A stretch of DNA of 10,181 nucleotides from a virus (Duplodnaviria; Heunggongvirae; Uroviricota; Caudoviricetes). Each line of letters starts with the position of its first letter. Position 1 is the first letter of the stretch. The position numbers were made by a program, and so were the translations under genes. This document shows, piece after piece, positions 6,699 through 7,047 of the stretch. Under the pieces are notes generated by a model, which had not been told where the DNA came from, ran no database searches, and saw nothing but the letters and a program-made list of their open reading frames with translations. The stretch lies in the IMG/VR virus record IMGVR_UViG_2671180454_000008; one strand, given 5' to 3'.

Positions 6699-6727
6699 TT
6701 GCAGATGTGATGACATATGGTTATTAT
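6699..6727 (+). promoter_or_regulatory. Candidate promoter of the tRNA array (TTGCAG-N17-TATTAT)
   Basis: Same conserved leader as at 3824-3852. Confidence 0.4.
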
Positions 6728-6736
6728 TCTGCCTCC

Positions 6737-6813
6737 GGCCCTTTAGCTCAGTTGGTCAGAGCGAGCGACTCATAATCGCCAGGTCGCTGGTTCAAGTCCA
6801 GCAAGGGCCACCA
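6737..6813 (+). tRNA. tRNA CAU anticodon (Ile2/Met, ileZ-like)
   Basis: Identical to the tRNA at 3862-3938. Confidence 0.85.
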
Positions 6814-6814
6814 A

Positions 6815-6891
6815 CCACCACTAGCTCATCCGGATAGAGCATCAACCTTCTAAGTTGACGGTGCGAGGTTCGAGTCCTCGGTGGTGGGCCA
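6815..6891 (+). tRNA. tRNA-Arg (UCU anticodon, decodes AGA)
   Basis: Acceptor CCACCAC/GTGGTGG, D-arm GCTC/GAGC, anticodon stem TCAAC/GTTGA with loop CTTCTAA, T-arm CGAGG-TTCGAGT-CCTCG, encoded CCA; unusual C1-G72 pair. Confidence 0.75.
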
Positions 6892-6893
6892 GC

Positions 6894-6969
6894 GCCGACT
6901 TAGCTCAGCAGGCAGAGCAACTGACTTGTAATCAGTAGGTCACCAGTTCGATTCCGGTAGTCGGCACCA
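6894..6969 (+). tRNA. tRNA-Thr (UGU anticodon), thrT-like
   Basis: Acceptor GCCGACT/AGTCGGC, anticodon stem ACTGA/TCAGT with loop CTTGTAA, encoded CCA; matches recalled E. coli thrT. Confidence 0.8.
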
Positions 6970-6972
6970 TAT

Positions 6973-7047
6973 GCGGGCATCGTATAATGGCTATTACCTC
7001 AGCCTTCCAAGCTGATGATGCGGGTTCGATTCCCGCTGCCCGCTCCA
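6973..7047 (+). tRNA. tRNA-Gly (UCC anticodon), glyT-like
   Basis: Acceptor GCGGGCA/TGCCCGC, anticodon stem TCAGC/GCTGA with loop CTTCCAA, T-arm GCGGG-TTCGATT-CCCGC, encoded CCA; matches recalled E. coli glyT. Confidence 0.85.

Follow-up and report, generated by a model that had tools for sequence, protein, structure and literature searches.

What is a block of four tRNA genes, packed almost end to end, doing between the antitermination gene and the lysis genes of a temperate phage? The question is raised by positions 6699-7047 of IMG/VR record IMGVR_UViG_2671180454_000008, a 10,181-nucleotide (nt) stretch of Caudoviricetes DNA that is referred to here, at its full length, as the window. The original prediction for this locus, made from the letters alone, had described a phage-borne operon of four tRNA genes with a promoter of its own. 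This much is confirmed: 6699-7047 is a genuine tRNA operon of a lambdoid prophage. We take it to be a polycistronic cluster lying between a Q-type gene and the lysis cassette, the most likely role of which is codon supplementation, i.e. the supply of tRNAs that read AUA, AGA (and AGG), ACA and GGA. We put the probability of this reading at about 0.65, and prefer it because the four anticodons match host-rare codons that are among the most over-represented in phage genes.

Nine tRNA genes are found by ARAGORN in the whole window, all of them on the plus strand, and four of these constitute the array (Table 1). As had been predicted, the four lie 1-3 nt apart and all end in an encoded CCA: the spacers, read from the sequence, are 1, 2 and 3 nt, the CCA is present in 4/4 genes, and the genes score 56.4-70.5 bits against Rfam RF00005, for which the gathering score is 29 bits. 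Each anticodon loop is 7 nt long with U33 and a purine at position 37 (CUCAUAA in tRNA-Ile2, CUUCUAA in tRNA-Arg, CUUGUAA in tRNA-Thr and CUUCCAA in tRNA-Gly, again as read from the sequence). The codons read are AUA for Ile2, AGA and, by wobble, AGG for Arg, ACA for Thr and GGA for Gly.

The greater use of just these codons by the phage is seen when the prophage of strain RMDEC465, which carries the same Ile-Arg-Thr-Gly array, is compared with 37 K-12 genes (14,701 codons from a single 50-kb sample), each codon being expressed as its share within its amino acid. ATA rises from a share of 0.058 in the host to 0.160 in early phage genes (odds ratio (OR) 3.1) and 0.101 in late genes (OR 1.8, p = 0.04). 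The biggest effect by far is for AGA, with shares of 0.021 in the host, 0.199 in early genes (OR 11.7) and 0.079 in late genes (OR 4.1, p = 1e-4), while ACA goes from 0.125 to 0.301 (OR 3.0) and 0.188 (OR 1.6, p = 0.016), and GGA from 0.101 to 0.239 (OR 2.8) and 0.137 (OR 1.4, p = 0.07). For the early genes the p values of the four codons run from 7e-7 down to 3e-18. Codon usage in the late genes had been named beforehand as a possible point of refutation, and these genes do show enrichment of the cognate codons. The original proposal, that the array supplies rare codons to the late genes, thus stands as regards the over-representation of ATA, AGA, ACA and GGA, and falls as regards its confinement to late genes, since the enrichment is phage-wide and stronger in early than in late genes.

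Nor is the four-codon signal simply one of drift toward AT, because in the late genes of RMDEC465, whose GC content equals that of the host, other A-ending codons (CGA, CTA, TCA, CCA, GCA, TTA, CAA and GAA) are either not enriched or depleted. A wider sample comes from 40 loci with the CAU-Arg-Thr-Gly array, from which distinct open reading frames (ORFs) were called mechanically, related ORFs not being independent of one another. Among 59 codons, ATA, AGA, ACA and GGA here rank 3, 2, 10 and 8 in over-representation in the ORFs downstream of the array, and 3, 2, 5 and 6 in those upstream. The supply of tRNA would then serve early and late phage genes alike, and possibly other AT-rich acquired genes in the lysogen. 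Counter-defence is currently being put forward as the chief explanation of phage tRNAs, and the agreement seen here, of four anticodons with the codons in which these prophages differ most from their host, lends support to codon supplementation in temperate phages.

Several points weigh against codon supplementation. The late-gene enrichment is modest (GGA at p = 0.07 and ATA at p = 0.04), and it is drawn from one 50-kb host sample and from ORF sets that are not independent. Across the 40 loci, the over-representation of AGG and CGG equals that of the four cognate codons, and the array contains no tRNA for CGG. In related arrays in which the second gene is a tRNA-Lys(UUU), AAA usage is no higher than at arrays of the Arg type, so that codon supply fails to explain every member of the array family; downstream of Arg-type arrays AGA and AGG are used slightly more than downstream of Lys-type ones (OR 1.3-1.5), a weak difference that is confounded by relatedness. 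Because the Thr and Gly genes duplicate host genes, any benefit from them would be one of dosage only. Finally, the promoter, the transcription start, the processing and the read-through of the cluster under Q are all features that we infer.

Which tRNAs are these, and where did they come from? The CAU gene, which the original prediction had left as Ile2 or Met, settles as Ile2. It is identical to ileZ of the Stx-type phage 933W at 74/77 positions, to K-12 ileY at 71/77 and to ileX at 69/77, and 100%-identical copies are labelled tRNA-Ile by the annotation pipeline PGAP. The ARAGORN label for it is tRNA-Met, assigned from the anticodon only, and was rejected on the grounds of the Ile2-type body and the PGAP annotation. 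The acceptor-stem determinants for lysidine formation by TilS are C4-G69 and C5-G68, both of which are present in the gene (GGCCCTT...AAGGGCC). Judged by its sequence, the gene encodes a tRNA-Ile2 that is predicted to depend on lysidine for the reading of AUA.

The Arg(UCU) gene matches 933W argN (anticodon UCG) at 61/77 positions, 933W argO (anticodon UCU) at 46/77 and host argU at 58/79, and thus has an argN-type body, with a C1-G72 acceptor end, bearing the anticodon of argO. Its anticodon stem is phage-specific, reading TCAAC/GTTGA as against ACGAC/GTCGT in the host. The other two genes are, as had been noted, almost host-identical. The Thr gene agrees with K-12 thrU at 74/76 positions, both differences falling in the D-loop, and the Gly gene agrees with K-12 glyT at 75/75. 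The original prediction had thus been right in calling the Gly gene glyT-like, and wrong in calling the Thr gene thrT-like, the identity to thrT being 55/79. Nor are the two genes simply an addition to ileZ-argN-argO, since argO is absent and the array has a single Arg gene.

Both thrU and glyT belong to one host operon, thrU-tyrU-glyT-thrT-tufB, and Thr precedes Gly there just as it does in the array. A host origin of the two genes is therefore plausible on sequence grounds. The 3-nt TAT spacer that separates them is the remnant expected from a precise deletion of tyrU (T...AT), for which the chance probability is ~6% (p ~0.06), there being four ways to split three bases. A comparison with the K-12 operon finds no host homology outside the mature Thr and Gly tRNAs, either in the spacers or in the flanking sequence on the 5' or the 3' side, and the array has no tyrU. 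Identity limited to the mature tRNA is equally expected from purifying selection or from gene conversion. Because only the mature sequences match, the recent capture from a host tRNA operon that had been suggested for these genes is unproven.

The conserved candidate promoter of the original prediction has fared well. This sigma-70-type tRNA promoter, pT, begins with the first base of TTGCAG, which is also the start reported for the array (6699), and its TATTAT hexamer ends 9 nt before the first tRNA gene. It aligns with the element annotated in 933W as "pT; putative tRNA promoter" (ATTGCAG...GTTATTAT), which stands at the same distance from its tRNA. A broader comparison was made with 100 leaders drawn from loci in which the Thr-Gly junction is exactly the same, 127 in all (120 from IMG/VR contigs and 7 from GTDB), the leaders being grouped into 12 clusters of <80% identity. 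TTGCAr at -38..-33 and TATyAT at -15..-10 are kept in register in 10/12 of these clusters, while the spacer and the upstream sequence differ. There is, then, good comparative support for pT as a functional promoter. The consensus scan gave its best match, at 10/12 positions, to a site within the array itself (6961-6988, and 8947-8974 in a second copy of the array described below). This candidate was rejected, its -10 element being the TATAAT of the glyT D-arm, and the match is almost certainly due to chance.

Upstream of pT, the array was said to follow directly upon the Q terminator, and it does lie downstream of a Q-like gene of the DUF1133 family and of a hairpin with a U-run, the latter beginning 72 nt past the stop codon of the former. 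The DUF1133 protein weakly matches Q21 (PDB 6P18, E 4e-4). A terminator scan of 6400-7300 made no call for the hairpin, which comes from folding; its counterpart before the second array copy (8609-8630) was called by the scan, and a terminator is found 50-100 nt upstream of the promoter in most leader types. A consensus scan of the stretch from the Q-like stop codon (6547) to the hairpin (6619) turned up no consensus-like PR', so that we infer the role of the hairpin as tR' from its position only, and regard that role as plausible.

Between terminator and promoter the leader also holds a Chi site (GCTGGTGG). Chi occurs six times in the window, against 0.35 expected, with 5/6 sites on the plus strand (6681-6688, 8667-8674, 3806-3813, 1156 and 2454; the minus-strand site is at 3466), and it recurs at a comparable position in leaders of other loci that belong to at least two further diverged types.

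On the downstream side, the array stands before the lysis genes and on the same strand: one copy follows the DUF1133 gene and another precedes a P21-type holin gene. The order DUF1367-DUF1364-DUF1133-tRNAs-holin is annotated by PGAP in complete genomes, and a holin gene and the lysozyme gene RrrD follow the Ile-Arg-Thr-Gly array in both RMDEC465 and FDAARGOS_944. Two terminator-like sites lie ahead of the holin gene in the window, an arrangement that fits a stop for pT transcripts in the lysogen and read-through by Q-modified polymerase.

Taken together, these elements suggest how the cluster might operate. Constitutive transcription from pT, a promoter for which the evidence is comparative, would start 2-4 nt before tRNA-Ile2 and place all four tRNAs on one transcript. 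By analogy with tightly spaced E. coli tRNA operons, RNase P would cut each 5' end and exonucleases would trim the 1-3-nt trailers after each CCA. Host TilS would then convert C34 of the CAU tRNA to lysidine, permitting it to read AUA. In the lysogen, pT transcripts would presumably be halted at the terminator-like sites before the holin gene. Upon induction, if gene order and the 933W model are a guide, Q-modified RNA polymerase would pass the upstream terminator, the tRNAs and the downstream terminators on its way into the lysis and structural genes, yielding more tRNA.

Table 1. Coordinates of the array, its control elements, its repeated copies and neighbouring features in the window.
Feature	Position	Strand	Basis or remarks
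tRNA-Ile2 (CAU), ileZ type	6737-6813	+	ARAGORN; Rfam RF00005 70.5 bits
tRNA-Arg (UCU), phage argN-type body	6815-6891	+	ARAGORN; Rfam RF00005 56.4 bits
tRNA-Thr (UGU), thrU-like	6894-6969	+	ARAGORN; Rfam RF00005 69.8 bits
tRNA-Gly (UCC), identical to host glyT	6973-7047	+	ARAGORN; Rfam RF00005 64.9 bits
Putative sigma-70-type tRNA promoter pT: TTGCAG (6699-6704), 17-nt spacer, TATTAT (6722-6727)	6699-6727	+	Consensus scan (1-nt-shifted register) and 933W pT alignment
Chi site in leader	6681-6688	+	Between terminator and promoter
Intrinsic-terminator-like hairpin and U-run, candidate tR'	6619-6649	+	Fold -18.2 kcal/mol, z -6.2, 0/200 shuffles as stable
Q-like antiterminator gene, DUF1133 family	5993-6547	+	Pfam DUF1133 355.8 bits; Phage_antitermQ 28.4 bits (cut-off 26), weak, on ORF 5873-6547
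Second exact copy (copy C) of leader, promoter and four tRNAs	8623-9034	+	Identical to 6637-7048; ARAGORN and Rfam
Third, partial copy: leader, promoter, tRNA-Ile2 (3862-3938) and chromosomal ileY 3' flank (3939-3992)	3762-3992	+	3762-3939 identical to 6637-6814
IS1, between ileY flank and piece B	4014-4771	-	Pfam DDE_Tnp_IS1 260 bits; terminal repeat ends at 4771; first ~10 nt in N-run
IS600, cut short at N 8368, between copy B and ORF6N fragment before copy C	7230-8367	-	Pfam rve and HTH_Tnp_1
Terminator-like site between array copy C and holin	9292-9317	+	Terminator scan: 7-bp stem, then TTTTGT
Strong terminator-like site just upstream of holin	9647-9683	+	Terminator scan: 10-bp stem with 6 GC pairs, then TTTTTCTTTC
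P21-type holin S gene, start of lysis cassette after copy C	9714-9989	+	Pfam Phage_holin_2_1, 118 bits

The array under discussion, hereafter copy B, is not the only one in the window. An exact repeat (copy C, 8623-9034) and a partial one (3762-3939), neither of which figured in the original prediction, account for the remaining five tRNA genes. Those of copy C lie at 8723-8799, 8801-8877, 8880-8955 and 8959-9033, and upstream of them stand an ORF6N gene, of which the 3' end is present, and its terminator. Identity between copies B and C starts inside the terminator (6637) and ends one base past tRNA-Gly (7048). Because the identity spans terminator to tRNA-Gly and the flanks differ, the array behaves as a module exchanged between Q-gene contexts.

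The three copies lie in three pieces of prophage. Piece A (1-3938) comprises genes for a DnaB-type helicase and RusA, a Q gene (PF06530), an ORF6N antirepressor-like gene, a leader and tRNA-Ile2; after it come the ileY flank, a run of N characters (3993-4013) and insertion sequence (IS) IS1 up to 4771. Piece B holds DUF1367, YbcO and the DUF1133 Q-like gene, followed by the array, and ends at IS600. Piece C opens partway through an ORF6N gene, after which come the array, two terminators and the P21-type holin. The only other N in the window is a single one at 8368, where the IS600 sequence breaks off. This IS600 is 99.2% identical to one in FDAARGOS_943, the match stopping 62 nt inside the transposase coding sequence (record position 9301, the start codon being at 9363), so that the transposase gene lacks its start and the element lacks the end that lies beyond.

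In piece A, 3508-3939 is identical to 8369-8800, and the 53 nt that follow the lone tRNA-Ile2 are identical to the downstream flank of K-12 ileY, the prophage tRNA-Ile2 and ileY genes themselves being identical over their last 32 nt. The junction between tRNA-Ile2 and the ileY flank is absent from all complete E. coli genomes searched, and would have arisen either by homologous recombination, which would have rearranged the chromosome, or as a chimera of the assembly. An attachment-site remnant was also considered for the lone tRNA at 3862, a reading rejected in view of the phage promoter that this tRNA carries and its place in a Q/ORF6N context. Piece A has RNA features of its own in the interval between its Q gene and the ORF6N antirepressor-like gene (2911-3672), overlapping the start of the latter. 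Here Rfam matches at gathering level on the plus strand (2656-3071) comprise isrK (2669-2745), the c4 a1/b1 target (2656-2708), C4 antisense RNA (2771-2854) and sRNA-Xcc1 (2988-3071). By these matches 2656-3071 is a putative antisense-controlled antirepressor module like immI of P1/P7 or isrK-anrP of Gifsy-1. Another side observation concerns the plus strand right after copy B, where 7054-7180 is predicted to fold into two long hairpins (GUCUUUCAGUC...GACUGAAAGAC and UAUGAAUGAUCGC...GCGAUCAUUCAUA; -46.9 kcal/mol, z -4.9) that have no U-run and no Rfam match, IS600 beginning at ~7230.

At no single place does a complete E. coli genome cover >44% of the window, and the GTDB representatives that have the Thr-Gly junction (Shigella flexneri, E. 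coli and Citrobacter braakii) match it only in pieces. In FDAARGOS_944 the left flank of copy B and the right flank of copy C surround a single array, and in RMDEC465, too, the two flanks are continuous around one array. We conclude that the window represents a scaffold made up of prophage remnants broken by IS elements, derived from a genome of the Shigella or enteroinvasive E. coli (EIEC) type. The array sequences themselves are real, since each matches nine complete genomes at 100% identity; that the three copies lie side by side, and that one of them is joined to ileY, may reflect either true rearrangement or the assembly. For annotators the lesson is that multi-copy prophage tRNA modules break or confuse short-read assemblies of Shigella/EIEC genomes.

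The nine genomes, filed as E. coli, carry the 361-nt promoter plus array without a single difference; they are CFSAN029787, FDAARGOS_943, FDAARGOS_944, an O121 strain, and RMDEC and VL strains, and the genes are annotated in them as tRNA-Ile, Arg, Thr and Gly. At a looser threshold, an array covering >=80% of the query is present in 601/5,426 E. coli genomes (11%), most of them with arrays of the Lys type. The Arg-type array was found in no deposited phage genome and the Lys type in three. The 127 junction-sharing loci divide into 53 with CAU-Lys(UUU)-Thr-Gly, 38 with CAU-Arg(UCU)-Thr-Gly, 20 with Thr-Gly only (some of these cut by contig ends) and 16 minor or degenerate forms.

Throughout this family (loci L009-L135) the second slot is occupied by one tRNA body with varied anticodon loops: UCG in 933W argN, UCU in the window, and UUU with an unusual C33 (loop CCUUUAA) in 53/127 loci. 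Degenerate slot-2 forms of 73-74 nt are read by ARAGORN as "???", as Leu(UAA) or as having a UUA "stop" anticodon. In the third slot, a Thr variant in four loci (L023, L086, L099 and L113) has TCATC in place of TCAGT as the 3' strand of its anticodon stem, with the loss of one CNG motif and a shortening of the stem; it is to these two features that the resistance of phage tRNA-Thr to P2-OLD is reportedly due. The fourth-slot gene is annotated as tRNA-Val in some genomes (e.g. FDAARGOS_943, locus L001, 7474-7544); it is a glyT-type gene in which UCC has become UAC and a base has been deleted from the 3' acceptor strand, which makes a pseudogene in decay more probable than a tRNA for valine.

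Might the array serve some purpose other than codon supply? Counter-defence would have it replace, in lytic growth, host tRNAs destroyed by tRNA-targeting nucleases (PrrC, PARIS AriB, P2-OLD or colicin-D-like enzymes). Of the tRNAs in the wider family, tRNA-Lys(UUU) is the target of both PARIS and PrrC. The sister arrays have a putative tRNA-Lys(UUU), on the same body and unexplained by codon usage, and there is a precedent in the T5 tRNA-Lys that neutralises PARIS (PMC11464382). P2-OLD, for its part, was shown in a 2025 study to block lambda chiefly through cleavage of host tRNA-Thr(UGU), the cuts falling at paired CNG motifs of the anticodon stem, and phage tRNA-Thr(UGU) variants rescue (PMC12445682). 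The window array, too, is lambdoid and has a Thr(UGU) gene, its Arg tRNA has a phage-specific anticodon stem, and in the four loci with the Thr variant the anticodon stem of that Thr tRNA is altered and shortened. On the other hand, host-type tRNA-ThrU, when over-expressed, protected little or not at all against P2-OLD (PMC12445682), and the Thr and Gly genes of the window have the very anticodon arms of host thrU and glyT (ACUGA/UCAGU in Thr), including CUG/CAG and CAG/CUG at 28-30/40-42. Because these arms equal those of the host, replacement of Thr and Gly predicts only a dosage benefit, and the original suggestion that nuclease-cleaved host tRNAs are replaced is unlikely for these two. The prediction from the P2-OLD comparison is that the thrU-type copy of the window should not protect a lambdoid phage from P2. 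Counting further against counter-defence, we know of no nuclease that targets Ile2, Arg(UCU), Thr(UGU) and Gly(UCC) together, nor of one for which the difference between the Arg anticodon stem and that of argU would matter. We therefore consider counter-defence quite improbable for the window array, and more attractive for the sister Lys(UUU, C33) arrays.

The independence of pT from Q raises the different possibility of lysogenic conversion, the cluster being a "moron" kept for the good of the host, in which constitutive pT would raise the level of rare-codon decoders for AT-rich acquired genes such as those of virulence plasmids or toxins. Intact and identical copies persist in the IS-riddled remnants of the window and in the nine complete EIEC/Shigella-like genomes, and the homologous cluster of 933W is found immediately upstream of stx2. 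Yet decayed versions exist, among them the broken "Val(UAC)" form of the Gly gene and the degenerate slot-2 genes, and we think such a role unlikely, noting that it overlaps codon supplementation and does not exclude it. Were the tRNA genes instead neutral passengers of the Q-to-lysis junction, supplying homology for modular exchange and playing no part in translation, one could readily account for module edges that coincide exactly with the terminator (6637) at one end and with the first base past tRNA-Gly (7048) at the other, the flanking sequences being different on both sides, for the swapping of slot 2 among arrays, for the Chi site in the leader and for the copy that has seemingly recombined with chromosomal ileY. 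Such a picture is hard to square with mature tRNAs that are strongly conserved while their flanks diverge, with promoter hexamers conserved in register, and with anticodons that match the most host-discordant codons; it strikes us as very improbable. More tentatively, and with considerable doubt, one may see the array family as a modular anticodon-shifting cassette of temperate coliphages, the slot-2 loop of which has been rewritten repeatedly, in part through an arms race with tRNA-cutting defences (PARIS/PrrC for Lys and P2-OLD for Thr). If so, the Arg/thrU-type array of the window would be the "codon-supply" state of the cassette, and homology to host tRNAs together with the conserved leader Chi would let it drive mosaicism among prophages and rearrangement of the chromosome of the kind suggested by the ileY chimera. 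This proposal concerns the family more than the window, for which codon supplementation is the reading that we retain.

How does the array compare with systems already described? No published description of the Ile2-Arg-Thr-Gly composition was found in the literature searched, and tRNAs go unmentioned in a paper on Stx pR' regions. The discovery value is nonetheless small: annotated tRNA clusters of this sort, placed between Q and the late genes and equipped with a promoter of their own, have been on record for lambdoid phages ever since 933W, and the array, a compositional variant of this long-known lambdoid cluster, is already annotated, in its exact sequence, in public genomes. The host operon thrU-tyrU-glyT-thrT-tufB resembles it in the Thr (74/76) and Gly (75/75) genes and in their order; the array differs in lacking tyrU, thrT and tufB, and in having a 3-nt spacer where the host has spacers of 8 and 116 nt. 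Of the same kind are the tRNA genes just downstream of Q in SfI, where they are Asn and Thr(UGU), and likewise in Sf6, ST64T, PS3 and phage 21 (PMC3636060); SfI, moreover, shows an ACA bias relative to its host (PMC3636060). These clusters are likened to the array by position and gene type, and differ from it in having one or two genes and other partners (Asn).

The CAU-Lys(UUU)-Thr(UGU)-Gly(UCC) arrays of vB_EcoS-689R5 (ON470583), PhiR47_1 (PV340566) and a prophage of avian pathogenic E. coli (APEC) O1 share the whole architecture, with an identical Thr-TAT-Gly junction and the same slot-2 body. Their promoters keep the hexamer consensus and register of the window within a leader of a diverged type (~93-94% identity over 91% of the query). 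They differ in a slot-2 loop of CCUUUAA (UUU, C33) in place of CUUCUAA (UCU), in a Thr gene that is exactly thrU, and in being far commoner.

A further comparison is with 933W, in whose GenBank record (NC_000924) Q is followed by pR', qut, two terminators, pT, ileZ-argN-argO, a terminator and stx2, so that the Stx-type cluster does occupy the equivalent place, as the original prediction had stated. The window lacks argO, its argN-type gene has UCU rather than UCG, and thrU-like and glyT-identical genes come next; its spacers are 1-3 nt as opposed to 9-13 nt; no stx genes lie downstream; and, unlike that of 933W, its Q gene belongs to another family (DUF1133). What the two clusters have in common is their place downstream of Q and a terminator and upstream of the late and lysis genes, a homologous pT that agrees in its hexamers, in their spacing and in its distance from the tRNA, a first gene that agrees with ileZ at 74/77 positions, and a second gene with an argN-type, C1-G72 body.

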